Below are positions 2,188 to 64,000 of a stretch of DNA of 64,000 nucleotides, one piece after another; positions within the stretch are counted from its first letter, which is position 1; each line of letters begins with the position of its first letter. A program made the translations under genes and the position numbers. Source of the stretch: a virus; the IMG/VR virus record IMGVR_UViG_3300030116_004360, positions 1 to 64,000 of that record, one strand, 5' to 3'. The notes below the pieces were generated by a model. The model worked only from the letters and a program-made list of their open reading frames with translations. It searched no databases and was not told where the DNA came from.

Positions 2188-3669
2188 ATGAGTGAAAAGG
2201 GAGATAAACTTCGTGAAATGGCTGTTTTAGCAGACCAAGAAGATGAACTTCAAGAGGAACAAGACCGCATTAAAGAAGATATAGAGTTAAGTAAGTGGTT
2301 ACTTACTCAACCCGTTTTATCAGAAGAAGATATTGCTAAGAACTTATCAAAAGATTTTAAAATTAACTTAAGTGATGCTAAAAAACATTTAGAATTGTTT
2401 CCATCAGAATATTTGGTTCAAGATAAAAATATACCTACTTTAATAAAAGAGTTAAAACAATATAGAAGAACCCTAAAAGGTGAAGAAAAAATCAGATTAA
2501 CTAAATCTATTGAAACAATTATTGATGGATATTCTGAACATTTAGATAACTGTATTAAATCTATTTACTGGATTACACCATATAAAGAAGTTTTGAAGAA
2601 ACTAAGATTTAATGAACAAGATTTATTAAAAATTAATTCAATTAAAACCTTAGATGAAAGAAGAAATTTAGTAGATATTTTGTGTAAAATATGGGAAAAT
2701 GATTTAGATATGAAAGATATAAAATATACTCAAGAGTATGCAAAATTATTCAAACAATCTAAAACATATAAAAAAGAATTTACTACATTATTAAAAAATA
2801 TATCTCATCAATCAATTAGAAAATCAAATAAAGAATTAATAAAAGATAATATTATTGCGAAAGTAATTGAAACTCCGGGTATTTCAGCAAGACAGATTCA
2901 TGATAATATGCCCGGTTATTTGTATAGGCGTTCCTCATCAAATATGATTTCAAAGATGGCTAATGAGTTAGGTATAACTAATATTGACGGTAACTATTAT
3001 AAATTGCCTAAAGAATTTAAGAAAGACCTTTATGCTTATACTGCTGCTTTTATTGATTCAGATGGTTATATTACAATGGATAAGAATTTTAATCCTAGAG
3101 TTGGGTTAGTAGCAACAGGTGATAGAGGTAAAGCCTTTATGATTGAAATACAAAAAGCATTAGGTATAGGTAAATTACACCTTGACCAAAAATCTCCACA
3201 AAATACTCGCCCTGTAAATAGATTAAACTTTTATTCTCAACATGATGTTAGAGAATTATTAACAAAATGTTTACCACATTTTAGAATGAAAAAGTCAAAT
3301 GCAGAATTATTATTAGAATTAATCCGAATGAAAAAGGGTTATAAGAAAGAATCTTGGTATAAAAATAGAGTAGAAGAAATATATAAATTAATGAAATGGG
3401 AGAACCATAAAGACCATGTAAATTATAACTTTGCACAGTATGGTATTGACCCTACAACAGTAGCAAAACTACATGAAAATAATAAGATGAGTATGATGGA
3501 TGAAATTGAAGGTATTTCTACACCTATTTTAAAAGATGATGTTAATGATGCTATTGATGATTTAGAAGAAATTGCTGATAAGTATGATTTAAGTGAAGAT
3601 GAATGGTCAAGTGTTGATGATGCTTCTGATTATATATTTGAGCATTATGTGTTAGATGAGGAGGAATGA
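2188..3669 (+). CDS. LAGLIDADG endonuclease-domain protein with long N-terminal extension
   Basis: YTAAFIDSDGYI motif followed by typical strands and LPHFRMKK. N-terminal ~280 aa are helical with a wHTH-like segment; acidic tail. Confidence 0.75.
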   Translation: MSEKGDKLREMAVLADQEDELQEEQDRIKEDIELSKWLLTQPVLSEEDIAKNLSKDFKINLSDAKKHLELFPSEYLVQDKNIPTLIKELKQYRRTLKGEEKIRLTKSIETIIDGYSEHLDNCIKSIYWITPYKEVLKKLRFNEQDLLKINSIKTLDERRNLVDILCKIWENDLDMKDIKYTQEYAKLFKQSKTYKKEFTTLLKNISHQSIRKSNKELIKDNIIAKVIETPGISARQIHDNMPGYLYRRSSSNMISKMANELGITNIDGNYYKLPKEFKKDLYAYTAAFIDSDGYITMDKNFNPRVGLVATGDRGKAFMIEIQKALGIGKLHLDQKSPQNTRPVNRLNFYSQHDVRELLTKCLPHFRMKKSNAELLLELIRMKKGYKKESWYKNRVEEIYKLMKWENHKDHVNYNFAQYGIDPTTVAKLHENNKMSMMDEIEGISTPILKDDVNDAIDDLEEIADKYDLSEDEWSSVDDASDYIFEHYVLDEEE

Positions 3670-3890
3670 ATATGGAAAAATGGCAAGAAGTATTAAAGAA
3701 AAAGAAAAAGAAAAAGAGAAAATCAACTGTTAATCAAGCAGGTAATTACACTAAACCATCAATGCGTAGAAGATTATTTAATGCTATAAAAAGAGGAACA
3801 AAAGGTGGTCCGGCTGGAAAATGGTCTGCAAGAAAAGCACAAATGTTGGCTCAAAAGTATAAAAAGAAGGGTGGCGGTTATCGTGACTAA
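3666..3890 (+). CDS. Small basic protein, N-terminal half of a DUF5872-like domain
   Basis: YTKPSMR...KGGPAGKWSARKAQMLAQKYKKKGGGY. N-terminal WQEVLK tag. Confidence 0.65.
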   Translation: MNMEKWQEVLKKKKKKKRKSTVNQAGNYTKPSMRRRLFNAIKRGTKGGPAGKWSARKAQMLAQKYKKKGGGYRD

Positions 3891-9057: not shown

Positions 9058-9420
9058 ATGGAATGGGAAAATACTTTAAAAAGAAAACCTCCGCAGGTTA
9101 TTGCTAAAGAAAAGAGTGCTATATTAGATTCTTTATCAGCAAAACAAAAAAAGCGTCTAAAGAAAACATTACAGGCAGCAGAACCCTCAGAATACTTTGG
9201 TCAAGATTTTACTAAATTAGGTGAACTTATTGATATGATGAAAGCCTTAGAGTTTATTAAATCTGATAATAAGTTAGATAAAAGAGTAAAGACATTAGAG
9301 GATTCAAATATTGATATTGTTGCTACTGCTACTAAATTAAGAAAAGAATATGAAACTACATATCGTGCTTTAAGAGGTATGATTTATCCACAAAAGAAGG
9401 GGGATTTAAGAAATGAGTGA
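9058..9420 (+). CDS. Hypothetical head-region protein
   Basis: MEWENTLKR tag; coiled-coil. Confidence 0.6.
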   Translation: MEWENTLKRKPPQVIAKEKSAILDSLSAKQKKRLKKTLQAAEPSEYFGQDFTKLGELIDMMKALEFIKSDNKLDKRVKTLEDSNIDIVATATKLRKEYETTYRALRGMIYPQKKGDLRNE

Positions 9421-9658
9421 AGAAAAGAATGAAATGTTAGAACTATTGAAAGCATTAGTTGAAAAAGTAAATGAATTAGAAAAGGCTGTTTATAATAAAG
9501 ATAATTTATTGATGAAATCTGGTTGGGTTGAAACAGGAACACCAAGACCTAAATTAGGTAGTGCAAACGCTGATGTTGATAATATTGCCAAAATGGATTG
9601 GTCAGATATTACTGAAATGGTCGGTAGATTAGAGAATCAAGAGCGTGGCGGATATTAA
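9413..9658 (+). CDS. Mini-scaffold-like protein
   Basis: N-terminal coiled coil. C-terminal MDWSDITEMV matches the protease/scaffold C-terminus MDWADIHNLV. Confidence 0.55.
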   Translation: MSEEKNEMLELLKALVEKVNELEKAVYNKDNLLMKSGWVETGTPRPKLGSANADVDNIAKMDWSDITEMVGRLENQERGGY

Positions 9659-54414: not shown

Positions 54415-55973
54415 TAAGCATACCTCCTAACCATTTCTTCGTATGTATCAATATCCGCAACAGGTTTATCATTACGAATTCTTTTACATCTAGGGAATCT
54501 TAAAGCATAAGTTTCATCTTCATTTTTAGTTACTACATCTCCTGTAACTTCAAGAACAACGCGAGGTAAAAATAAATATGTATCCTTTTCAGAGGATATA
54601 ATTATCTTACGAAGTTCGTTAGTTAATCTAAATAAATCTGTATCAGAAAAACCTGTTCCAACGGAACCTATCTGAATAAATTCATTTTCGTGTTTAACTG
54701 ATATATCAAAAGAACCAAATACATTTGCTCTTTTACCATCACCATATCTAGCACCAGTAATAACCACATCTAATTCAATTAATGGTGGCTTATATTTAAT
54801 CCAATCTTTAGACCTTTTTCCCGGTTGATATAATGCATCAGTTGGTTTAATAATGATTCCTTCAAAACCATCTTGAATTGCTGAATGATAAAAACCCATA
54901 ACTCCCATTTCATCTGTATTTTCACTCCAAATCCTATGAGTTGGAAAGGGACCGTTGTTGTAGTCCCACTTACTTAATCTGTTATATAATGTTTCATCCA
55001 TAAAAGATTCACCATCCATTTGTAACATATCAAATATAACAAACTTAACTGGACATTTTTGAACTGCATCCATCTTATCTTTTGAATGAACTCTAGTGCC
55101 TAACTTTTGATGCTTTTCAGGAGTCCCATCTTCTTTAATAGGATAAATCTCTCCATCAACAATAAATTCATTTGGTAGATTTGATTCAAGAATTTGTTGA
55201 ACAATATCAGGAAATTGGTCAGTAGCATCTTTACCTTTACGATTAAAAATAATTACTCTATCGTTCTTTCTATGAACTTGATACCTATTACCATCATACT
55301 TATATTCTACAACATAATTATTATTAGGCCACTTATCTTTAGGTAAGGCTTTTGCTAACATAGGTTTAATAAAATTACCAAAGCCTAATGTGTTTGGAAC
55401 TTCTATATTATTCTCATAAAATGAAATAACTTCATCAATAGGTAAAGCACGAATATCTACTTCCATCTTCTTAAGGTCTTTATTATAATATTCAGAAACG
55501 GCCTTCACTAAATTTTTATTCTGAAAACCATTACGAGGTTTTCTTAACCAATACCGAATAAACCATTTCTTTTCTAGGCTATTCATCTTATTGAACATCT
55601 CTTCAAACAATCTAAAAACATCACCATCAGAACGACTACAATCTAGAGTTAAAATACGAAGTAATTGATTTAAACTAATCCCACTTTCTCCTTCCATATA
55701 ACCATCAAAATTATGAACTCCATCAGCCAAATCACCATACATAGATGAAAAGGTTTCTATTTCATCTTCATATACACCATAAGCATTAGCAACCCATTTT
55801 ACTGCTTTCTTCTTAGCGATATTATTTGGTTCAAGGTCTAGATTTAAAATCTTCACTAGAACTGTTTTATTGTTAGATTTATCAAATGCTTCTTGAAAGA
55901 GTTTAACTTTAAATGTTGGAGCAACAGTTTCTATACTTTCATTAAACTGTGCAAATTCATATAAAGTATTCAT
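54414..55973 (-). CDS. lig: ATP-dependent DNA ligase (replicative)
   Basis: KPMLA, EYKYDGNR, VDGEI, IFDML, EGIIIK, WIKYK, LRFPR..RIRNDK. Confidence 0.95.
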   Translation of the reverse strand: MNTLYEFAQFNESIETVAPTFKVKLFQEAFDKSNNKTVLVKILNLDLEPNNIAKKKAVKWVANAYGVYEDEIETFSSMYGDLADGVHNFDGYMEGESGISLNQLLRILTLDCSRSDGDVFRLFEEMFNKMNSLEKKWFIRYWLRKPRNGFQNKNLVKAVSEYYNKDLKKMEVDIRALPIDEVISFYENNIEVPNTLGFGNFIKPMLAKALPKDKWPNNNYVVEYKYDGNRYQVHRKNDRVIIFNRKGKDATDQFPDIVQQILESNLPNEFIVDGEIYPIKEDGTPEKHQKLGTRVHSKDKMDAVQKCPVKFVIFDMLQMDGESFMDETLYNRLSKWDYNNGPFPTHRIWSENTDEMGVMGFYHSAIQDGFEGIIIKPTDALYQPGKRSKDWIKYKPPLIELDVVITGARYGDGKRANVFGSFDISVKHENEFIQIGSVGTGFSDTDLFRLTNELRKIIISSEKDTYLFLPRVVLEVTGDVVTKNEDETYALRFPRCKRIRNDKPVADIDTYEEMVRRYA

Positions 55974-56428
55974 TCTTCTTCATCTCCAAACATTTCTTCA
56001 AACTGTTTAATTGTATTTACATACATTTTACTTAGAAATTGTGTTGTTTTATACATCTCATCAAGTAGTTCTTTACCTCCAGAGCCTAATGACTGTGATA
56101 CACCCACTAAACCAACCATAGCAATAAAAGCCTTTAAATGTGCTAGTGTAATATTCATAGAGTTTATTACCTGCTTTCTATGTTCACGGTCGTCATTAAT
56201 TCTAAACATAGATTTTAGAGTTTCTATATTATTTAGCCACACAAGTTCTTTAACTTTATCACTTTCATCAGAACCATATACATCATCATATGTTGCATCT
56301 GCACCTAGATATAAACCACTACAAAAATTATCTATCAATTCATCTGGCAAATCTCCCTTCATTTTTTCTTGTAATGTATGTAATATATCATCTACTTTGT
56401 GCATTTGTTCTTTCTTATGTTTATTCAT
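55970..56428 (-). CDS. Hypothetical protein
   Basis: Coupled ORF. Confidence 0.6.
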   Translation of the reverse strand: MNKHKKEQMHKVDDILHTLQEKMKGDLPDELIDNFCSGLYLGADATYDDVYGSDESDKVKELVWLNNIETLKSMFRINDDREHRKQVINSMNITLAHLKAFIAMVGLVGVSQSLGSGGKELLDEMYKTTQFLSKMYVNTIKQFEEMFGDEEE

Positions 56429-56652
56429 TACTGATACCTCCCTAGTATTAAATCTGCAAAAGCAATATCAACATGATGTGGCATTACTTTTGAATATCTT
56501 TTATCTCTTTCTAATGCCAAAGAAACTAGATTGCCTAGCCTTTGCATTAATATCTCACTTCTCTCTTGAAATTGTTCAATTGATTCAGGAGATAATGTCT
56601 TTCCTTTTGTTTGTTCTTTTAATGTTCTTTTTGATTCTTGATAACTTACCAT
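56428..56652 (-). CDS. Stand-alone histone-fold protein (74 aa; start re-called to 56652)
   Basis: GAGGTGA SD. KRTLKEQTKGKTLSPESIEQF...LVSLALERDKRYSKVMPHHVDIAF fits alpha1-L1-alpha2-L2-alpha3. Confidence 0.6.
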   Translation of the reverse strand: MVSYQESKRTLKEQTKGKTLSPESIEQFQERSEILMQRLGNLVSLALERDKRYSKVMPHHVDIAFADLILGRYQ

Positions 56653-56677
56653 TTTAATCACCTCTTGAAAATAAACA

Positions 56678-56735
56678 GGTTGAACTGCCGTCCTACGCAT
56701 CTAGAATCCTAGACGCTTAGAGTAGCAGTTGAACC
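56678..56735 (-). promoter_or_regulatory. Long RNA hairpin in the leader of the histone-fold gene
   Basis: GGTTCAACTGC...GCGTCTAG GATT CTAGATGC...GCAGTTCAACC. Confidence 0.55.
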
Positions 56736-56744
56736 GGACTATTT

Positions 56745-57143
56745 TCACTCTATCATTTCACCTCTAATGAATTTATTTACTTCATTAAAGGTAAAGAAAT
56801 ACCTCGGTATCTCTAATTCGTCCAATCTATTTACAACCCAACAAGCCCCACCTAAACTACTTATTTGGACTATTTCATAAGTAGCCTTTCCTTTTTGAAT
56901 TACTTCTTTAGTTCCTATTTCAGGAGTTAATCCATAAATTCTAGTTAATTCTTTAGCGATACTATCCATATTTTCTGCTACATATTTAATTATATGAGTT
57001 CTTTGAATAGGAACCTTTGCATCTACTTTAACTTTAATTTTTCCAGTCCAATCACAAACTTTACATTTGTTTGCATCACATATTGGACATTTTATTTCTG
57101 CCGGTAAAGGTGCTGGAAATCTTACAGTTACAGTTTTTTTCAT
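56745..57143 (-). CDS. Zn-finger protein
   Basis: CPIC...CKVCDWTG, a DnaJ-like Cys repeat; next to the chaperonin. Confidence 0.6.
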   Translation of the reverse strand: MKKTVTVRFPAPLPAEIKCPICDANKCKVCDWTGKIKVKVDAKVPIQRTHIIKYVAENMDSIAKELTRIYGLTPEIGTKEVIQKGKATYEIVQISSLGGACWVVNRLDELEIPRYFFTFNEVNKFIRGEMIE

Positions 57144-57206
57144 GGGTTTGCCTCCATATATTCTATAACCACTTCATCTATTTCTTTGTCTGGACCCTTT
57201 GGTTCT

Positions 57207-58775
57207 TTATTGCCCCAAATGAGCCGGTAAAGCCATTTCATTTTCACCACCAATAATTGCTACTTCTGTTGTTAAGACCATTAATGCAATTGAAACTGCT
57301 GAACGGAAACTACTCTTAGTAACTTTTACAGGGTCAATGATGCCTCGTTCAAGAAGGTTTACGTCGTTTTCAATCTTAAGCGCATCAAAACCCATACCAT
57401 GCATATTAGATACATCACTGTAAGTTAAATCTACTCCTGCATTTCTAGCAATTTGGAAATATGGTTCATGGAAAATTCTACTCATTAAAACATTAAAATC
57501 ATTTTCTTCCATTTGTGTTGAAGCATCAATTAATGCTTTTCCTCCACCAACAACATATCCTTGTTCTCTAGCGGCTTGTGTAGCATTTAAAGCATCATCT
57601 AACCTTTCTTTCTTTTCTTTTAATTCAATTTCAGTTGGTGCGCCTACTGTAATTCTAGCAATTCCACCACGAAGTTTAGCAATACGTTTCTTTAATCTAC
57701 TAGCAAGATATTTATCATCAGTGCTATTAAATTTAACTTCAAGTGCAATCGCTCTATCTGAAACTCTCTTATCAGTTTCATCATCACTATCTACTGTAAT
57801 AATAGTTCTATCTTTATTAATGATAGCCTTTGAAGCCATACCTAGAACTAAATCATCATTCTTAGAAATATCTTCACCAGAATCTACATCAATAACTTTA
57901 CCGCCAACAATAGAAGATATATCATTCATCTCATCAATCATAGCATCACCAAAACTAGGTGCTTTAATAATACAACAATCAATAGTTTTTCTAAGAATAT
58001 TAACAATAATATTAGCCAATGCTGAACCTGTAACATCTCGCGCCATAATTAATAGTGGTCGCTTATGAGTATTACAATGTTCTAAATATGGAAGAATATC
58101 TTGAAAGTTCTTAATATCCTCATTAGTCATTAATATATACGGATTGTCCAAAACACATGAACCATCATCTTGATTAATCATAGTATGGCTAACCATACCT
58201 CTATCAATCTCATAGCCATTTACAATCTCAATACTAGTTTCATTTGTTGTTCCTTCTTGAACAGAAATAACACATTGTTCACCTGCTAGAGAAATTACTT
58301 CAGAAATTAACCCACCTAACTCTTCATCATTGTTAGATGCAATTGTGGCAATTTGCTCAATTTTTTCTTGATTATCAACAGGTTCGGCCATAGTATCGAG
58401 AACCGCACAAATAGAATCAGTATATTCTAAAATACTCTTTCTAAACTCTGCTAGATTTTCAATAGTTTCTTGATTAAAATAATCACATAATGCCTGTGCT
58501 AATACACAAGCGGTAGTAGTTCCATCACCTGTATTTGATTGAGCCTCTGATGCAACATTTTGAATCAATTCGATTCCCATTTGAATAAAAGGGTCATCAG
58601 AAGATACAAATTTAGCAATTGTTACACCATCATTAATAACAGTTGGTTTAGGATATGTTTGTAATACAACAGTTTTAGCCTGTGGACCCAATGTTGGTTT
58701 TACTGCATCGGCAACAAGATTAACTCCTGCTAATATCTTTTCTTTCGCTTCATCATTAAATAATACTTTACTCAA
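57207..58775 (-). CDS. groEL: Group I chaperonin GroEL
   Basis: AVKPTLGP, NDGVTIAK, GDGTTTA, KAPSFGD, RIAKLRGGIA, GIIDPVKVT. Confidence 0.95.
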   Translation of the reverse strand: MSKVLFNDEAKEKILAGVNLVADAVKPTLGPQAKTVVLQTYPKPTVINDGVTIAKFVSSDDPFIQMGIELIQNVASEAQSNTGDGTTTACVLAQALCDYFNQETIENLAEFRKSILEYTDSICAVLDTMAEPVDNQEKIEQIATIASNNDEELGGLISEVISLAGEQCVISVQEGTTNETSIEIVNGYEIDRGMVSHTMINQDDGSCVLDNPYILMTNEDIKNFQDILPYLEHCNTHKRPLLIMARDVTGSALANIIVNILRKTIDCCIIKAPSFGDAMIDEMNDISSIVGGKVIDVDSGEDISKNDDLVLGMASKAIINKDRTIITVDSDDETDKRVSDRAIALEVKFNSTDDKYLASRLKKRIAKLRGGIARITVGAPTEIELKEKKERLDDALNATQAAREQGYVVGGGKALIDASTQMEENDFNVLMSRIFHEPYFQIARNAGVDLTYSDVSNMHGMGFDALKIENDVNLLERGIIDPVKVTKSSFRSAVSIALMVLTTEVAIIGGENEMALPAHLGQ

Positions 58776-59005
58776 AATTTCTCCCCCTTTCCTGTTTCAA
58801 AATAAATTTGTGAAATATCTATAATCAGATACTTCATATATGGAACTGCTGCTTTATCATTAAAGACAACAAATTTACCATCATATTTCCCATCAGGAGA
58901 AGATATTACTCTTCCTGTTTGGGAATCTGTTGTAATTAATCCAGAAATGCTTGTTTCATCACGCTTCTCAATAATTACCCAATTGTTACAATCTAATACT
59001 CTCAT
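58772..59005 (-). CDS. groES: GroES-like co-chaperonin (start re-called to 59005)
   Basis: NWVIIEK..ETSISGLI...TGRVIS...YLIIDISQI; GGAGG SD; directly upstream of groEL. Confidence 0.7.
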   Translation of the reverse strand: MRVLDCNNWVIIEKRDETSISGLITTDSQTGRVISSPDGKYDGKFVVFNDKAAVPYMKYLIIDISQIYFETGKGEKF

Positions 59006-59139
59006 TAGAATACCTCCCTTTTTCCACACGTATCACAACGTAAAACTACCATTGTTTTTCTAGATTTGTTATTTACATTTTTTTGTTCTGCAATAACCAT
59101 TCTACCATTACTACAATCTAAACACTTAACGCCCGTCAT
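59005..59139 (-). CDS. Zn-ribbon microprotein (44 aa, not in ORF track)
   Basis: MTGVKCLDCSNGRM...LRCDTCGKREVF*. Confidence 0.55.
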   Translation of the reverse strand: MTGVKCLDCSNGRMVIAEQKNVNNKSRKTMVVLRCDTCGKREVF

Positions 59140-59266
59140 TTATAATACTCTCCAATGTTTCTCTTACAACATACCTAGCAATATGAGGCCCATGACCTCT
59201 TTTTAAACCATTAACATATCTTTGTAGTTTATTCAAAACTATTTCTAATTTTTCTGAATCATTCAT
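59126..59266 (-). CDS. Hypothetical microprotein (46 aa, not in ORF track)
   Basis: MNDSEKLEIVLNKLQRY...; ATGA overlap. Confidence 0.45.
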   Translation of the reverse strand: MNDSEKLEIVLNKLQRYVNGLKRGHGPHIARYVVRETLESIINDGR

Positions 59267-59457
59267 TCCTCTTCACCTACCGTAAACTCTAATTCTAATA
59301 CAGAATATCTATACTCTTCTTCCGCAGCCAACAATTGATGGATTAAAAATGTATGCCTTGAAAGAAGGTTTTCAAATTCAGATTCAAATAGTTCTAATTC
59401 TTCTTTAGCCTCCTTAACATACTTTTCTGCTCTGTTTACATCCTTTTGAGTAGTCAT
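59263..59457 (-). CDS. Acidic coiled-coil protein
   Basis: Coupled to the JAB gene. Confidence 0.55.
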   Translation of the reverse strand: MTTQKDVNRAEKYVKEAKEELELFESEFENLLSRHTFLIHQLLAAEEEYRYSVLELEFTVGEEE

Positions 59458-59984
59458 TCTTCTTCACCAACATAAGCCATTCTTTCTTCATAAAAGATAA
59501 AATTTTGTAATGTTTTATCATCTTGCATCCAAAGCATCCTTTGTCTATCACCAAGAACAATTGCAGATTCCATCAATAGTTTCCAAGAATTAATAGTCCT
59601 TCTATCAGTTCCACTAAAATAAGCAGTTCCAAACGGATGAGTATGAATCCAACATTTAATCGGCAATTTCATTTGTTTCAATTGTTCTTCTTGATTCTCA
59701 AAAGAAACGAATCCCGGAGTCCCATAACTGATAAATAATTTCTCATTAGAATCAATTACTACTTGAACTTCTCTATCAATATCAAAAGCCTTTAGGCTCA
59801 TAGCAAAAATTTCATCCAGAAATGCTGATGAAAGATACCCTGCAAATATTTTATATCCATAGTTATCTATTTTCCATTCATCATAATCTTCTCCTTTATG
59901 ATTTTGCCATATTTCAAACAAACTTGTTATTCTTTCTTTCCAATCTTCTATCTTTATTTCACTACCATCTACCATTTTAATCAC
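59454..59984 (-). CDS. JAB/MPN+ (JAMM) metallo-isopeptidase
   Basis: REV glutamate, then WIHTHP...YFSGTD (E...HxH-x7-S-x2-D). Confidence 0.85.
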   Translation of the reverse strand: MIKMVDGSEIKIEDWKERITSLFEIWQNHKGEDYDEWKIDNYGYKIFAGYLSSAFLDEIFAMSLKAFDIDREVQVVIDSNEKLFISYGTPGFVSFENQEEQLKQMKLPIKCWIHTHPFGTAYFSGTDRRTINSWKLLMESAIVLGDRQRMLWMQDDKTLQNFIFYEERMAYVGEEE

Positions 59985-60539
59985 CTATACATTTATCATT
60001 TTAAATTCATTCACTTCTTCATTATTAAACCATCTTTGAATCCATTGTGCGCCCATACCTGCAATTGCTACATGGGTAAAATGAATCCCTTCTTTTTCTC
60101 CATTCCAATCACCTTGGCAGGAAAAAGAACCTTCTGGCCCCTTTAATAAAGTATCAATCTTATTCTTATCAATGTCGTAACTAACTAACGCCCCATTTCT
60201 ACCTTGAGAACGTAAATCAAGCCACTTTACATTTGAATTGTAAAGCATTTTACGCACATCTAAATTATCTGCACAACAAACTACCAATTCAAATCCTTTT
60301 ACTTGATTTTCCATCAATACCCGATATGGTTGAGGTTTAACACCTTCACATTTATTAGCCATCACTTCGGCCTTATTCATATCTAATTGTCCAATATTAA
60401 AATTTTGGTATGTTAAATTCTTTCCTTCTACAATATCAGGGTCATACACCGTAATATCGTATAACTTCGTTCTATGCAATAGTGGTATTAGAAAACTTCC
60501 AATTCCACCTGCTCCTATAATCATTATTTTTCTTTTCAT
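59985..60539 (-). CDS. ThiF/MoeB/E1-like adenylyltransferase
   Basis: IIGAGGIGS, YDPDIVEGKNLTYQ, NKAE, CCADNLDVR; candidate active Cys in GSFSCQ. Confidence 0.9.
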   Translation of the reverse strand: MKRKIMIIGAGGIGSFLIPLLHRTKLYDITVYDPDIVEGKNLTYQNFNIGQLDMNKAEVMANKCEGVKPQPYRVLMENQVKGFELVVCCADNLDVRKMLYNSNVKWLDLRSQGRNGALVSYDIDKNKIDTLLKGPEGSFSCQGDWNGEKEGIHFTHVAIAGMGAQWIQRWFNNEEVNEFKMINV

Positions 60540-60541
60540 TT

Positions 60542-61468
60542 TTATTCCTCCCTATCAAATCTTATTCCATTAACAAAATCATCTACTGTTATCATTTGTA
60601 ATAGTTCTCTCTTTGCTTTACCTTTTACTGTAAAACCTAAATCCCTTAGAAGTTCATTAGTATTATTTCTCGTAGAAACTGATGTTGTTTCTGTAACTTC
60701 TGCTATTCTTACTAAGGAAAAGTTTCTATGTAATATAGTTCTAGTTACATTCAACACTGTTGCAAAAAATGTTTTAGTTATTGGTTTTGGTTTAGCATAA
60801 TAAATGCCTTCGACGTATTTACCAATAATGTGAGCAGTTTTAAGAAACTCAAAATCATTAGGACATAATTTACTAACCAATAAATCTATTTCTTGAGGCA
60901 CATTTTTTTGTGCAATAACATGAGGATTTCTAAAAAATCGTGCTACGATTCTTACCTGCTTAAATAAACTTCTTTCACTAATATCTAACTTCTTAGCAGT
61001 TTGTTTAATAGTTATTGGTCTTCCTAACTCTTTTAGTGTAAAGAATGTTAAAGCACCTGCTCTAACTTCATAGGGTGTTCTTTTGAATAACCCAACACTA
61101 TGCGCCCTTCTACAATATTCTACAAGAGTTTCTTGTGATAAAGGTGTAAAATTTCCATCAGTCATTTCAGTTAAAGCCATCTTAGAATACTTAATATTTA
61201 TTTCTAAGGATTGGTGTTTTTTATGGCCGTGAAATTTTTCTGCTCTTTTAAGACGATAACCTATTCCTTCTTTTGCATTTATGGGTGCAGAACCTAATTG
61301 ACCTTTATCAGGAGAATGAATAGTTTCACCCGCCTTATTTAAACTATATGTTGTTTCTTCAAGTATAATTGATTCTGCTACTAATCCACAAGTATTACAA
61401 ACAAATGACCCTAATCGGTCATCAAGAGTATATTCTCTTTCTCCACATTCAAGACACGGTTCTCGCAT
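60542..61468 (-). CDS. tfb: Transcription initiation factor B homologue
   Basis: Zn ribbon CLECG...D..LGSFVCNTCGLV and two cyclin repeats (RPITIKQTAK, SLVRIAEVT). Confidence 0.85.
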   Translation of the reverse strand: MREPCLECGEREYTLDDRLGSFVCNTCGLVAESIILEETTYSLNKAGETIHSPDKGQLGSAPINAKEGIGYRLKRAEKFHGHKKHQSLEINIKYSKMALTEMTDGNFTPLSQETLVEYCRRAHSVGLFKRTPYEVRAGALTFFTLKELGRPITIKQTAKKLDISERSLFKQVRIVARFFRNPHVIAQKNVPQEIDLLVSKLCPNDFEFLKTAHIIGKYVEGIYYAKPKPITKTFFATVLNVTRTILHRNFSLVRIAEVTETTSVSTRNNTNELLRDLGFTVKGKAKRELLQMITVDDFVNGIRFDREE

Positions 61469-62669
61469 TAATAAATCCCTCCAAATTATTCCAATCTAAT
61501 CTACATTCATTCTGTCCACTAACATGATATTTTTCAATATAGCGTTTAATAGTATTTACCATAGCAACAGTCATTTCGTCATTTAATAATGCTAATGCTC
61601 TAGCACAGAATTGGTCACCAACAGAAGAATGTCTAGTCATATTATCAATACAAATAGGCCCATGAAGGGCTAATTTAGGTTTTAATCCATGTCCTCCTTC
61701 ATTGTGCTTAACAATAAATGTTGAAACCATTTGAATATCACTTTTATATTCAGCATCAGAAAGAACCCAATCTGCTAATTTACCTCTAACTATCATATAT
61801 GTTCTTTCTGCCTTTTCAATAATTCTAATTCTATTAGGATTAGAGCGTTGCATGGCTTCCATTAGTTCCTTTGCTCTTTCTTCAACAATATGTTGAGTTC
61901 TATTTTGTTCTAAAAATGCAACCATTAGTTTTTGTTGTGTTTCTGTTGGTTTTTTACCCATTAATTTTACCCATAACTTTTTCGGTGAAAGATGTTTCCA
62001 TGAACCACCTTTCTTTTCTTTCCAATAAAAGTTCATATATACATCTAAATCTTTAATAGAAATTGGAGCCCAAATTCCATCAGATATTTCAATTGCTAAT
62101 TGATTTTCACCAACCATTTCTACTCTAAATCTACAATCAACCTTTTCTCGTTCTTTATACCAATGAAAAGGTGCGCGATTTTCTAATGCATAAGAAACAT
62201 TCTCTGGTAAAATTAAGTTTCTTTCTAAGTAATTATATAATTCTATTGAGTCATTAGTAAAACATGACCTATAAATAGTTCTTGCTAAACTACGTAATAG
62301 ATTTTCCTTAGATGTAACTTTACCATTAATACCATATCTAGTTCCTTTTTTGTAGAAAAGAATAGGAAGTCCTTCACCACTAATAGATGAAGAACCAATA
62401 GTAACTACATAATTAAATTCTCTAGGCTTATCAATATCATATGAGTATCTACTTCTTCGCTTTCTAGTATTAAGCACATTATTTAAAAATTCATAAATTG
62501 CTTGAATTGTTGGTTCATGTGCCTGTCTAAAATTGCTAGGATTTAAAGTAACACGTTGTTCATAGATTTCATCTGATGAACTTTCATTTTTAACTGTAAT
62601 TCTTGTTTTATATTTAACTTGCGCTCTATCTGTCGCTTCTCTTATATTTATTTCATATGCATATACCAT
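61449..62669 (-). CDS. Hypothetical protein (406 aa)
   Basis: Long ORF; C-terminal GPICID...GDQFCARALALLND. Confidence 0.6.
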   Translation of the reverse strand: MVYAYEINIREATDRAQVKYKTRITVKNESSSDEIYEQRVTLNPSNFRQAHEPTIQAIYEFLNNVLNTRKRRSRYSYDIDKPREFNYVVTIGSSSISGEGLPILFYKKGTRYGINGKVTSKENLLRSLARTIYRSCFTNDSIELYNYLERNLILPENVSYALENRAPFHWYKEREKVDCRFRVEMVGENQLAIEISDGIWAPISIKDLDVYMNFYWKEKKGGSWKHLSPKKLWVKLMGKKPTETQQKLMVAFLEQNRTQHIVEERAKELMEAMQRSNPNRIRIIEKAERTYMIVRGKLADWVLSDAEYKSDIQMVSTFIVKHNEGGHGLKPKLALHGPICIDNMTRHSSVGDQFCARALALLNDEMTVAMVNTIKRYIEKYHVSGQNECRLDWNNLEGFINARTVS

Positions 62670-62870
62670 TTACATCACATAATCCTTATCTTTAAAATTC
62701 TTTTTGCACTTATGGTGCATTTCTTGTTTTTGTTCTTCTGGTGTTAATAACTGATGACCACATATTCTACATCTAGTAGCAATTCTTCTATTATAATTAA
62801 ATTTACTATCCACATAATCGGGGTCATGTTCGGTCATAATATCACTCTTCTTCATTGTTAATTTCTTCAT
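62670..62870 (-). CDS. Small Zn-finger protein
   Basis: CRICG...HHKC. Confidence 0.55.
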   Translation of the reverse strand: MKKLTMKKSDIMTEHDPDYVDSKFNYNRRIATRCRICGHQLLTPEEQKQEMHHKCKKNFKDKDYVM

Positions 62871-63153
62871 ATATACTATACTCTCTAATTAATTGATATT
62901 TACCATCTAAATATCCATATTTTCTGCGAGTAATAGTTTTGAAATCAGTTTCCATTAGCCCCATCATGATAGCATACATAATTACCATATTAAAGGGTTC
63001 TTTTTTTATTGAAGTCCAAGACCATTTTTGTCCTTGTATTGATAATGGTTTTTCACTATTCCATTTTATTCTCATAGCCTTTATTACTTCACTTTTATAA
63101 AAATTCTTTAATATCCAATCTGGATTTGCCTGTCCATCTACTATCTTAACCAT
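62842..63153 (-). CDS. Hypothetical protein
   Basis: Coupled ORF. Confidence 0.5.
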   Translation of the reverse strand: MVKIVDGQANPDWILKNFYKSEVIKAMRIKWNSEKPLSIQGQKWSWTSIKKEPFNMVIMYAIMMGLMETDFKTITRRKYGYLDGKYQLIREYSIYEEINNEEE

Positions 63154-63430
63154 CTACATCACCATTATTATTATAATATTCTAACATATTTTCTGTTTCT
63201 TTCTTTTTATTTTTCATCCACTGTGGATAACCCATAGCAATAGCATCATCAAGATGCCATAAAGCCTCAGTTATTTCTGAAACTACCATAAATATTCTAT
63301 TTTTATCAGAATAATGTAATGTTTCTGCTTTATAAATAGTATTCATAATTTTTATCCAATGTTCAGGTTCAAAATAATGCTCCCATTCAAGAACTATTCT
63401 TTTACATTCATGAAAATCCTTAAAAATCAT
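63146..63430 (-). CDS. Hypothetical protein
   Basis: Coupled ORF. Confidence 0.5.
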   Translation of the reverse strand: MIFKDFHECKRIVLEWEHYFEPEHWIKIMNTIYKAETLHYSDKNRIFMVVSEITEALWHLDDAIAMGYPQWMKNKKKETENMLEYYNNNGDVDG

Positions 63431-64000
63431 ATTTCACAAACTCCACCTGCACACGCGGCTTCACCACTTAAATTAGTATTATCTTCTAATTCTTTTACAG
63501 ATGTTAAATCAATAGTTTTTAAGTGGGAAGCCAATTCATTAAATTGTTTCAACCCAATATCTTCAAATGGTGCTTGAACATAAGTTCCACCATCATAAGG
63601 TAATACAGATAAACCGTTGTAATAATGACGATTCATCCATAACCATTCTCCAACCGGAGTCCATTCATCTTCTTTAATAGATATTGTAGCAGATACATTA
63701 TGCGTATTCATACCATCAACGTGACCTCTTTGAACCCAACGGATTGAATATCTTTTAACACGCTCTAATAGGTCAAAAACATCCTCTGTTCTAACGATTG
63801 ACCCCTTTGGTGCGCGTTGAGGTATGCTAATTTTGGCCTCTGTTTCCTTCTTAAAAAAATCATCTTCAACTAATTCAGGATGATTAGCCTTCAAGTAAGG
63901 ATAAATCGCTTCACCCTTTCCAACACTAACTCTACGAATATAGTAATCATTATGATAAGCATGAATACCTGAAGAAGTCCCTAAAACTAGAGATGTTGTT
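63427..64000 (-). CDS. nrdJ: Class II (B12-dependent) ribonucleotide reductase, 3' part, truncated by the window
   Basis: Frame is open to the edge: TTSLVLGTSSGIH...YIRRV, HNVSATI, YVQAPFE, terminal ACAGGVCEI. Confidence 0.9.
   Translation of the reverse strand, partial: TTSLVLGTSSGIHAYHNDYYIRRVSVGKGEAIYPYLKANHPELVEDDFFKKETEAKISIPQRAPKGSIVRTEDVFDLLERVKRYSIRWVQRGHVDGMNTHNVSATISIKEDEWTPVGEWLWMNRHYYNGLSVLPYDGGTYVQAPFEDIGLKQFNELASHLKTIDLTSVKELEDNTNLSGEAACAGGVCEI

Follow-up and report, generated by a model that had tools for sequence, protein, structure and literature searches.

A candidate virus-encoded system for ubiquitin-like protein activation and conjugation in magroviruses of marine archaea

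An E1-like gene and a JAMM protease (JAB) gene lie side by side in the genome of an oceanic virus of marine archaea that belongs to the magroviruses. We give an even chance to the reading that this E1/JAB pair is half of a self-contained, virus-encoded system of four genes for the activation and conjugation of a ubiquitin-like protein (Ubl), of the same type as the Bil, Bub, and SAMP systems. The system belongs to one family common to the magroviruses, a second group of phages that encode sigma factors, and the Poseidoniales host lineage. The whole stretch of DNA analysed, hereafter the window, comprises positions 1–64,000 of IMG/VR record IMGVR_UViG_3300030116_004360; the whole genome is 90.5 kb. 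The relevant features are listed below, with positions in the window unless the genome is named.

59454–59984, minus strand: JAMM/MPN+ metalloprotease, 176 amino acids (motif and family profile)
59985–60539, minus strand: mini-E1 (ThiF-type), 184 amino acids (Pfam ThiF, AF2, and Foldseek)
60542–61468, minus strand: TFB-like gene, 308 amino acids, between the genes for the Cys-domain protein and E1 (weak TFIIB Zn-ribbon)
61449–62669, minus strand: Cys-domain protein, 406 amino acids (one invariant cysteine, conserved loci)
63427–64000, minus strand: last gene of the window, the C-terminal part of a ribonucleotide reductase (RNR), running off the edge
Genome 65766–65969, minus strand: pro-Ubl, 67 amino acids, beta-grasp, ending in AIVGG-CN, 1766 bases past the end of the window

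Gene arrangement and linkage of the module

The genes for the Ubl, the JAMM protease, E1, and the Cys-domain protein all lie on the minus strand. The adjacency and shared orientation of E1 and JAMM, noticed in a sequence-only reading of the window, were borne out, and the TAG stop codon of the E1 gene directly abuts the GTG start codon of the JAB gene. That reading also stated that no ubiquitin-like gene was in view, which is true of the window but not of the genome. The Ubl seemed to be missing because its gene lies beyond the end of the window, and its absence was therefore a window-edge artefact. Across the end of the window, the gene order is Ubl, a 130-amino-acid ORF, and RNR.

The pair was conserved and co-oriented, with JAB downstream of E1, in all 13 related IMG/VR loci. 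The Cys-domain protein was conserved in the same 13 of 13 loci, and in 74 of 80 viral loci its gene lay no more than 5 kb from that of the mini-E1. The Ubl was present in seven of the 13 related loci and in four of five further whole records, giving 11 of 13; the remaining two are short fragments. Natural fusions were found of Ubl with E1 (P0438), of two Ubls with E1 (P0495), and of E1 with JAB (P0505), and the E1-JAB fusion also occurred in the host loci L044 and L085. The conserved adjacency and the natural E1-JAB fusions indicate that the pair belongs together and support its earlier interpretation as a writer and an eraser, and the Ubl-E1, Ubl-Ubl-E1, and E1-JAB fusions tie Ubl, E1, and JAB into one system.

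The gene directly upstream of the pair had been called TFB. A gene is indeed present there, but its resemblance to TFB is weak: the 308-amino-acid ORF matched the TFIIB Zn-ribbon with an E-value of 1.1e-5 and 25.3 bits against a cut-off of 29, and its relatives matched the TFIIB Zn-ribbon at 4.4e-6 and the TFIIB repeat at 3.5e-3. A TFB-like ORF occurred within 5 kb of E1 in 59 of 80 viral loci. We regard it as a neighbour of the module. The neighbouring genes of the module gave no informative family match. An 85-amino-acid ORF in the window and 75-amino-acid ORFs in its relatives were considered as GroES and rejected, as Cpn10 was matched only at E-values of 0.04–0.09 in the relatives and not at all by the 85-amino-acid ORF. 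Many genes in this genome have E-rich tails at overlapping gene junctions.

Predicted properties of the four proteins

The Ubl ends in IVGG-CN, and both glycines (G64 and G65) are invariant. Its AF2 model, built from 36 sequences, had a pLDDT of 86.8 and showed the order strand-strand-helix-strand-strand-(helix)-strand, which is that of a beta-grasp. In the Foldseek search, the best rows were ubiquitin, NEDD8, and MoaD, with weak scores (best E-value 7.2e-3, probability 0.99), and the best VIA rows were the Bil Ubl 8tyz_B (Z 5.1, rmsd 2.9, 61 residues aligned) and MoaD 6jc0 (Z 5.0). Next came ThiS, CysO, TtuB, Urm1, and SAMP1, and BubA was also among the fold matches (Z 4.0). The predicted structure thus corresponds to a beta-grasp fold with modest fold scores (Z about 5, Foldseek E-value >1e-3). 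By sequence, the protein fell into none of the ThiS, MoaD, and ubiquitin families: it had no Pfam match, the ThiS-family model PF02597 matched nothing in the six frames of the genome, and a profile search of the PDB with the Ubl retrieved no PDB Ubl. Among the matches listed, all 120 Ubl homologs contained the GG and 116 had a tail after it, which consisted of one or two variable residues in 114 and was longer in two; the other four ended at GG. The GG is not an artefact of a ribosome-binding site, as its codons are GGC GGT and the start of the next gene is 88 nt distant. Small ORFs between E1 and JAB in relatives, with the ends QQGGV, QTGGL, and YGGDD, were not accepted as Ubls, as the overlapping next gene may have its purine-rich ribosome-binding site there. 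Two plus-strand ORFs of the window (3666–3890 and 9413–9658), both in the head module, also have GG near the end.

The JAB protein matched Pfam Prok-JAB with an E-value of 1.4e-4 and 22.1 bits, below the cut-off of 25. When a profile of 32 JAB homologs was compared with the PDB, AMSH-like proteases (AMSH-LP; E-value 1.8e-5) and an archaeal Rpn11-like protein (3.4e-5) were matched. The metal motif, already read as intact, proved to be so: in E..HxHx7SxxD, the residues E72, H114, H116, S124, and D127 are invariant in the 32 sequences. JAB is predicted to trim the Ubl tail, and it is possibly an isopeptidase as well. PHROGs and PADLOC searches with JAB, the Ubl, and the Cys-domain protein gave no match.

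The mini-E1 matched Pfam ThiF with an E-value of 5.4e-14 and 52.4 bits (cut-off 28.1), covering only positions 21–139 of the 238 in the profile, and its 774 homologs are of about 185 amino acids; one of these has already been named 'putative ThiF family protein' by NCBI. It consists of a single adenylation domain and lacks CxxC (Zn) pairs, a rhodanese domain, a UFD domain, and the N-terminal Arg-finger helix. The invariants of the family include GxGGIGS, D33, D35, K40, N41, K56, D91, N92, and S140-C141-Q142, and thus the nucleotide loop G9xG11G12xG14 and the DN motif D91-N92. The description of a 184-residue E1 without CxxC pairs and with a candidate cysteine in GSFSCQ was accurate, and the SCQ cysteine, C141, was invariant in three separate alignments. 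The AF2 model had a pLDDT of 88.1, with C141 in its least confident part (residues 131–150, block pLDDT 51–65). MoeB binds the ATP phosphates through the Arg of its NLxRQ motif together with an Arg finger at the N-terminus. In the viral E1, Tyr44 replaces the NLxRQ Arg, and Tyr, Phe, or His occupies the position across the whole wider family; moreover, the protein starts eight residues before the G-loop and lacks the N-terminal Arg-finger segment. Catalysis is therefore assumed, and the invariant K40 might substitute for the missing Arg.

The Foldseek matches of the E1 model were AclA (top), UBA5, ThiF, MoeB, and Cap2, with UBA5, ThiF, and MoeB at E-values of 1e-10 to 1e-9 and TMq of 0.72–0.77 (0.77 for MoeB). 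Together with the profile match, the predicted Rossmann-type fold places the protein in the E1-like/ThiF adenylation-domain superfamily. The top PDB sequence matches were AclA (9egb/9egc, the name being taken from the Foldseek row) and MccB; with AclA also the top fold match, this raises the alternative of a ThiF-like enzyme that modifies peptides or metabolites, of the MccB, PaaA, or AclA type, and is unrelated to protein tagging. We consider this very improbable: the matches are confined to the generic Rossmann part, similar scores were obtained for UBA5, ThiF, and MoeB, and the conserved partner of the enzyme is a folded 67-amino-acid beta-grasp protein with an invariant GG that is fused to E1 in relatives.

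Co-folding of E1 with Ubl residues 1–65 gave weak support for an interaction, with a score of 0.50 against 0.00 for the best control. Of 80 solved complexes, 58 reached the mark, as did two of 110 mismatched pairs; at scores of 0.60 or lower, only seven of the 80 solved complexes did so, along with both mismatches. Between runs, at least 97% of the contacts agreed, and the partner pLDDT was at least 84. The pass may derive from the predictor's memory of the MoeB-MoaD and ThiF-ThiS complexes.

The C-terminal domain of the 406-amino-acid Cys-domain protein contains the invariants C340-I-D, G351-D-Q-F, L361-x-N-D, and T373, in this order, with one invariant cysteine. The protein had no match in Pfam and no sequence match in the PDB by profile search, the ESM Atlas gave no usable match, the HPN motif is absent, and the E2 Pfam models matched none of 17 Cys-domain segments. 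The stretch after the cysteine is only about 35 residues long in the second virus group, less than the length of a UBC fold. Of the beta-grasp and E2 folds for which the sequence-only reading had proposed to search the genome, the former was thus recovered as the Ubl, and for the latter the UQ_con model gave no match in the genome. The protein is a candidate for a thioester relay (an E2-like step), or it may be a target or something unrelated.

Comparison with known tagging and sulfur-carrier systems

Part for part, the viral set corresponds to Bil (BilABCD): in Bil, the Ubl carries a C-terminal extension, the protease is a DUB of the JAB type, and E1 is accompanied by a further protein that bears a cysteine. 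The Bil Ubl 8tyz_B was also the top VIA match of the viral Ubl. As described by Chambers et al. (PMC10557695), the DUB pre-processes the Ubl and exposes its C-terminal glycine. In that account, however, the Bil E1 has an inactive and an active adenylation domain with a mobile CYS domain, whereas the viral E1 is a single domain of 184 amino acids and not a two-domain E1 of the Bil type; the Bil E2 has the UBC fold, whereas the viral Cys-domain protein matches no E2 family by sequence; and Bil is a bacterial defence operon, whereas the present module occurs in viruses and archaea. Bub resembles the host relatives with E1-JAB and Ubl-E1 fusions in that it has a peptidase-E1 fusion, and, as described by Ye et al. 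(PMC11601596), cleavage of the precursor releases the functional Ubl. Bub uses serine oxyesters and an E1 without a catalytic cysteine, whereas the mini-E1 family retains the invariant SCQ cysteine and its fourth protein has one too.

Like the viral module, the SAMP/UbaA/HvJAMM1 system is found in an archaeal context; it too combines a beta-grasp modifier that has GG at its C-terminus with an E1 and a JAMM protease, and has no recognisable E2. Archaeal SAMPylation needs only E1 and the JAMM protease, and SAMPs are not known to require tail removal. The sequence-only reading had accordingly proposed an orphan viral pair by which host SAMPs would be attached to proteins so as to direct these to the proteasome, and the failure to detect an E2-family protein is in keeping with it. 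We now consider it highly unlikely. Hijacking of host SAMPs is unneeded, as a cognate Ubl with a GG and tail is encoded by the virus itself and was present in 11 of 13 related records. This Ubl occurs together with the mini-E1 family or is fused to it, and it is unlike the ThiS/MoaD family models. Nor is the viral E1 of the UbaA type: UbaA is a MoeB-type E1 of about 270 amino acids, and the viral protein scored 25 bits against the UbaA equivalog model NF047750, for which the cut-off is 450. A further difference from the SAMP system is the conserved fourth, Cys-domain protein found here.

The main rival to a tagging system is a sulfur-carrier pathway, in which JAB would mature the Ubl, E1 would adenylate it, and its C-terminus would become a thiocarboxylate. 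Sulfur would pass from this group to a nucleic acid or small molecule, such as in tRNA wobble 2-thiolation or in a thio-cofactor, as in ThiS/ThiF, MoaD/MoeB, TtuB/TtuC, and QbsE/QbsC/QbsD. In QbsE/QbsC/QbsD and CysO/MoeZ/Mec+, a ThiS/MoaD-like protein with a GG and a short tail is combined with a JAMM protease that exposes the GG and with an E1-like adenylase; in QbsE itself, a GG+2 tail is removed by the JAMM protease. The E1s of such trios carry a rhodanese domain, and their genes lie beside those for sulfur assimilation or biosynthesis; neither feature was found in searches of the viral genome. Trios of this kind with a JAMM protease are outlined in general terms by Iyer et al. 2006 (PMC1779556). 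Several Ubl homologs were named 'sulfur carrier protein ThiS' by JGI, MoaD, ThiS, CysO, and TtuB were among the best fold matches of the Ubl, and ThiF and MoeB were among the nearest profile families of E1. The viral genes also show a strong preference for AAA, GAA, and CAA (73%, 86%, and 87%), the codons read by 2-thiouridine tRNAs, a preference that may only reflect the GC content of 31%. Nevertheless, this pathway seems unlikely to us: the E1 has no rhodanese domain, the Cys-domain partner is in no known sulfur-enzyme family, and the tRNA scan of the window found no genes. Six-frame searches of the 90-kb genome with PF02597, PF01171, PF00179, and PF00581 gave no match, and thus no rhodanese, PP-loop sulfurtransferase, ThiS-family protein, or E2 (UQ_con), although such negatives carry little weight where viral proteins are divergent, and the host could supply the enzymes.

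The crAss-like phages DAC15 and PhiCrAssBcn have an adjacent JAB and ThiF-like pair in their replication region, 29–32% identical to the viral E1. This pair is longer (336–416 amino acids), lacks SCQ, has no Ubl or Cys-domain HMM match within 4 kb, and forms a very long branch in the E1 tree. Its members are annotated as 'thiamine biosynthesis protein' and 'metalloprotease domain containing protein'.

Distribution in viruses and hosts and the proposed mechanism

Hundreds of oceanic magrovirus sequence clusters contain the module. The second virus group consists of large sigma-factor-encoding phages with a Ubl/E1/Cys-protein set, and a full-length sigma-70 factor lies just downstream of E1 in 11 of its 14 loci. 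Searches of GenBank phages with the second-group E1 at 1e-8 gave no match. One locus of this group (L102) has a JAB of 151 amino acids from another subfamily between Ubl and E1 (Prok-JAB 1.4e-13), and a motif scan found a JAB-motif ORF adjoining E1 in 10 of the 14 loci; the idea that this group lacks JAB and that its tail-less Ubls are tied to this absence is consequently void. The Ubls of the second group mostly end exactly at GG although JAB is present, and therefore tail trimming cannot be the only role of the protease.

In the host lineage, a related Ubl/E1/JAB/Cys-protein set was found in 77 loci on contigs of up to 451 kb, with orders such as Ubl followed by an E1-JAB fusion, or Cys-protein, Ubl, E1, and JAB in succession. 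When the viral Cys-protein HMM was run against 921 ORFs of the host loci, only one cluster (c3) was matched, with 21 matches, and the viral and host Cys-proteins were joined in one alignment. Pfam gave no match for host neighbour clusters c3, c20, c23, and c4 or for the long Cys-proteins of the second virus group. Strong mini-E1 matches occurred in about 86 of 151 sampled Poseidoniales genomes, often in two to four copies and in several architectures, and the viral and host clades were sisters in the E1 tree, with moderate support (82/92).

This homologous host set suggests another possibility, namely that the virus interferes with it, the viral copies acting as decoys or the viral JAB stripping host Ubl from viral proteins, if conjugation by the host set has an antiviral or regulatory function. 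This turns the counter-defence idea of the sequence-only reading towards the host's own set. The sister relationship of the clades and the patchy distribution, which is typical of accessory systems, fit this possibility, and Bil and Bub are proposed or shown to be immune systems (PMC10557695, PMC11601596). We nonetheless judge it quite unlikely, as the virus keeps all four parts and not an eraser alone, and in one host architecture the surrounding genes are conserved housekeeping genes (Taw1 radical-SAM and others). Furthermore, the only defence-family match of the module was to the generic Rossmann part of Cap2 E1-E2 models in PADLOC, and it involved no more than E1 residues 2–70 (best 4.1e-12).

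If the four genes form a conjugation system, its course can be proposed in four steps. The JAMM protease would first trim the Ubl back to the invariant Gly-Gly by removing its variable tail of one or two residues, as the tail pattern and the Bil precedent suggest. The mini-E1 would then bind the Ubl and adenylate its C-terminal glycine, a step to which the fold, the motifs, the Ubl-E1 fusions, and the weak co-fold point. The activated Ubl would pass to C141 of E1 and probably from there to C340 of the 406-amino-acid protein, a cysteine relay that we infer only. Finally, the Ubl would be attached to protein targets, and the JAMM protease may also reverse this attachment.

A more specific and, to our minds, doubtful extension of this scheme is that the module is a host take-over device with a previously unrecognised cysteine transfer enzyme. 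It would tag a host protein with the Ubl, most attractively a basal transcription factor or an RNA polymerase subunit, so that the viral initiation factor takes control. The hint for this is that the module adjoins a virus-encoded initiation factor, TFB-like or sigma-70, in two virus groups with different transcription machineries. In Haloferax, a TATA-binding protein is reported to be modified by a Ubl and subsequently degraded (PMC4895103).

The main texts of magrovirus papers and of one paper on archaeal tailed viruses do not mention ubiquitin, JAB, or ThiF, although supplementary tables may list the ThiF gene. A full-text literature search yielded no relevant paper linking magroviruses or archaeal viruses to ubiquitin or to ThiF with JAB, or Poseidoniales to ubiquitin-like systems, and we found no discussion of the module in print. 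To our knowledge, Ubl conjugation outside eukaryotes has so far been described only in cells, as the SAMPs of archaea and the Bil, Bub, and CBASS systems of bacteria, and the three bacterial systems act against phages. In the present case, viruses themselves carry the genes for a modifier, its activating enzyme, a protease, and a conserved protein with an invariant cysteine; a sister set occurs in the Poseidoniales, which rank among the most abundant archaea in surface ocean waters. Should the module conjugate proteins, its E1, at about 185 residues, would be a minimal one, its transfer enzyme would possibly represent a new class, and it would become testable whether viruses of prokaryotes manipulate their hosts by ubiquitin-like tagging.

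Genomic setting and the ubiquitin-like gene

The virus record comprises 90,477 bases (CheckV completeness, 96), and the window, which covers its first 64 kb, is AT-rich (GC approximately 31%), with a switch of gene strand near 38 kb. GroEL, a TFB-like factor, ribonucleotide reductase (RNR), and relatives of roughly 90 kb fit the description in PMC5434244 of "magroviruses," which infect marine group II archaea. The genes under study are as follows, in transcription order.

RNR, C-terminal part; minus strand; first here, before several small ORFs
61449-62669; minus strand; 406-aa ORF with one invariant cysteine (Cys-domain protein), after several small ORFs
60542-61468; minus strand; 308-aa TFB-like ORF, between the 406-aa ORF and E1
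59985-60539; minus strand; E1, 184 aa, ThiF profile
59454-59984; minus strand; JAB, 176 aa, followed by three small ORFs
58772-59029; minus strand; 85-aa ORF, downstream of JAB and the three small ORFs, followed by the Cpn60/GroEL gene

When the ORFs of the whole genome were listed and filtered for GG within the last residues, a single coding-strand candidate emerged, a 67-aa protein ending in AIVGGCN (genome 65766-65969, minus strand). In transcription order it precedes E1 by 5.2 kb and is separated from RNR by a 130-aa ORF; its position is 1.8 kb past the window end. The sequence-only reading that no ubiquitin-like (Ubl) gene was in view thus holds within the window but not for the genome, and for the 67-aa protein AlphaFold2 (AF2) predicts strands and helices arranged as in a beta-grasp fold and a tail that is disordered (36 sequences; pLDDT 86.8). 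Homologs were detected with tblastn in 7 of 13 related loci and with a profile in four of five further whole records; two related records lacking the gene were short fragments. The GG was present in all 120 homologs listed, followed by one or two variable residues in 114 and by longer tails in two, and was terminal in four. Because it is encoded by GGC GGT and an 88-nt spacer separates it from the next gene, the GG is not an artefact of a ribosome-binding site.

Sequence methods (Pfam, PF02597 in six frames of the genome, and a PDB profile search) gave no match to the Ubl. In structural comparisons, the top Foldseek rows were ubiquitin, NEDD8, and MoaD, although weak (E = 7e-3), and VIA-align against 48,161 chains ranked the Bil Ubl first (Z 5.1), followed by MoaD, Fubi, ThiS, CysO, TtuB, Urm1, and SAMP1. 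The protein represents a divergent family of Ubls in which N7, G10-H11-T12, H28, and H31 are invariant. These residues are not known from ThiS, MoaD, or ubiquitin. Three histidines (H11, H28, and H31) are invariant in the Ubl alignment, in which E8 and T9 are nearly so; the conserved residues could build a metal site or a surface for recognition.

Several other features of the neighborhood were observed. Acidic gene ends (..GEEE, ..DEEE, ..NEEE, ..DREE) are common at 55970-63153, with the stop codon overlapping or abutting the next start, and their codons are purine-rich (GGTGAAGAAGAATGA); the pattern looks like ribosome-binding sites placed within the coding ends. The EEE terminus occurs in nearly all of 32 JAB homologs. 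The ORF at 56745-57143 (minus strand) encodes 132 aa and has a CxxCxxxxCxxC knuckle at its N terminus; it matched no family in profile searches. Of the 13 related loci, 11 conserve it in the vicinity of JAB, five of them directly downstream. A small ORF lies directly upstream of the viral GroEL gene in the window (58772-59029, minus strand) and in two related loci (L003:7047-7274 and L004:3789-4016). The 85-aa version in the window had no Cpn10 match, and the Cpn10 (GroES) matches of the 75-aa versions in two relatives were faint (E = 0.04 and 0.09); according to PMC5434244, GroES is expected to be absent from magroviruses.

E1, JAB, and the Cys-domain protein

Profile and predicted fold both identify E1 as a genuine adenylation domain of the ThiF family. 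Its AF2 model (pLDDT 88.1) matched AclA best in Foldseek (3.5e-11), followed by UBA5, ThiF, MoeB (TMq 0.77), and Cap2. The protein is stripped down, with the glycine loop beginning 8 residues from the start of a total of 184, and it has no CxxC zinc site, rhodanese domain, or UFD domain. A Tyr occupies the position of the Arg in the NLxRQ motif of other E1s, the role of which is known from MoeB. The candidate cysteine proposed from the sequence alone, C141 in SCQ, proved to be invariant in alignments of the magrovirus, host-type, and second viral E1 families, but it sits in the loop that the model predicts with the lowest confidence. The family is large, comprising 774 sequence clusters (E ≤ 1e-3; contigs reaching about 100 kb), and a profile search of 1.84 billion representatives identified 492 proteins at E ≤ 1e-10, most of approximately 190-200 aa and with the same SCQ motif.

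The Pfam match of JAB was weak (22.1 bits; cut-off, 25). Every catalytic residue was invariant in the 32 homologs, and PDB matches to its profile were AMSH-like proteases and an Rpn11-like protein from an archaeon. This family comprises 517 sequence clusters (E ≤ 1e-3; contigs up to about 100 kb). E1 and JAB were co-oriented neighbors in 13 of 13 loci, with intervening small ORFs of up to 1 kb in some, and natural fusions of the Ubl-E1 (P0438), Ubl-Ubl-E1 (P0495), and E1-JAB (P0505) types are among the 492 proteins. Co-folding of E1 with the mature Ubl gave "weak support" (0.50, versus 0.00 for the best control), a mark that 58 of 80 solved complexes but also 2 of 110 mismatched pairs attained, scores of ≤ 0.60 being more often wrong than right. 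Contact agreement among the runs was ≥ 97% and the partner pLDDT was ≥ 84; the pass may reflect memory of the MoeB-MoaD and ThiF-ThiS complexes.

The 406-aa protein was also retained in all 13 loci. It has a single invariant cysteine, C-terminal to which D, GDQF, R, L-x-ND, and T are likewise invariant. When an HMM of the viral proteins was searched against 921 host-locus ORFs, all 21 matches fell in a single cluster (c3), whose genes immediately precede Ubl-E1-JAB or lie close by, and each match spanned the cysteine motif. Of 80 further viral loci, 74 had a protein matching a joint-domain profile at most 5 kb from the mini-E1. This conservation with E1, Ubl, and JAB across viral and host loci argues that it belongs to the system. 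Its role may be E2-like; none of 17 Cys-domain segments matched a Pfam E2 family, the HPN motif is absent, and nothing in the PDB matched by sequence.

Related loci in the host lineage and other viruses

When each prokaryotic species was represented by one genome, scanning identified 77 loci on contigs of up to 451 kb, nearly all titled Poseidoniales, Poseidoniaceae, Thalassarchaeaceae, or unclassified Methanobacteriota/Thermoplasmatota MAGs, with a few in bins with bacterial names. A homolog of the viral JAB was directly downstream of or fused to E1 in 60, and a viral Ubl homolog was present in 26. The architectures were Ubl (ending TGG+1) followed by an E1-JAB fusion; Cys-domain protein, Ubl, E1, and JAB; Taw1, E1, JAB, and an 80-aa ORF; and a Ubl-Ubl-E1 fusion, in whose cluster three NCBI members are named Poseidoniales archaea. 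In a sample of 151 genomes from the order, matches at E ≤ 1e-10 occurred in 138 and were lacking in 13; by our own count, 86 of the 138 were strong family matches (best E ≤ 2.6e-24), and in the other 52 longer frames, which presumably encode another E1, were matched weakly (1e-11 to 1e-14). The viral Ubl profile matched all four host genomes examined. In an E1 tree of 48 rows, the bootstrap of which is not fully settled, the magrovirus (99/100) and host-type (99/99) clades were joined with moderate support (82/92), and the crAss ThiF sequences formed a very long outgroup. Interference with the host's homologous system is a possible alternative role for the viral module. In L071, a 95-kb contig from a Thermoplasmatota bin, the JAB resembled that of the virus much more strongly (E = 7.9e-30) than did the JABs of other host loci; this contig, similar in length to a magrovirus, may be viral and binned with a MAG.

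The best 14 loci of a second viral scan (L099-L112; contigs of 16-210 kb) begin with the gene for a Cys-domain protein of 556-792 aa, followed by those for a Ubl of 71-85 aa, a JAB that belongs to a different subfamily, and a mini-E1. These Ubls mostly end exactly at GG, and the Cys-domain protein ends about 35 residues past the cysteine, which is short for a UBC fold. The E1 had no match in GenBank phages at 1e-8. A full sigma-70 factor lies just downstream of the mini-E1 in 11 of the 14 loci (among L099-L109), and in magrovirus-type loci a TFB-like gene adjoins E1 (≤ 5 kb in 59 of 80 viral loci overall). These neighbors indicate that the module accompanies the virus's own transcription initiation factor in both bacterial- and archaeal-type viruses, although this may be only a shared early-gene block. 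In L102 (6857-9156), the DNA polymerase I gene is apparently interrupted by a 167-aa Cys/His-rich ORF that looks HNH-like by eye.

The crAss-like phages DAC15 and PhiCrAssBcn17 (L001 and L002) carry an adjacent JAB/ThiF pair of a different type with longer proteins, with no Ubl or Cys-domain HMM match within 4 kb. This pair, located in the replication region, consists of a JAB-domain protein of about 414 aa and a ThiF-like protein of 336-385 aa, annotated as "metalloprotease domain containing protein," "thiamine biosynthesis protein," or hypothetical.

Function and comparison with known systems

Sequence analysis and comparison show a conserved four-gene set, three members of which are a GG-ended beta-grasp protein, an E1-like adenylase, and a JAMM protease. 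Synteny in three lineages, together with the gene fusions, indicates that the parts belong together. The reaction would proceed by trimming, adenylation, thioester formation, and transfer, with putative roles for the two cysteines (E1 C141 and that of the Cys-domain protein) and protein conjugation as the proposed outcome. The main rival, a sulfur-carrier role, is rated lower than conjugation because rhodanese and PP-loop searches of the genome found no sulfur-handling partner, and what invariably accompanies the set is a cysteine protein that matched no family in sequence searches. The hijacking of host SAMPs, which the sequence-only reading had suggested, is no longer needed, as the virus encodes its own Ubl.

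Literature searches covering main texts found no published discussion of this module. The nearest described systems are archaeal SAMPylation; Bil, whose Ubl is first processed by a DUB (PMC10557695); and Bub, which has a peptidase-E1 fusion (PMC11601596). In contrast to these, the viral module has a single-domain mini-E1 without the canonical Arg and an unclassified fourth protein, and it resides in viruses.
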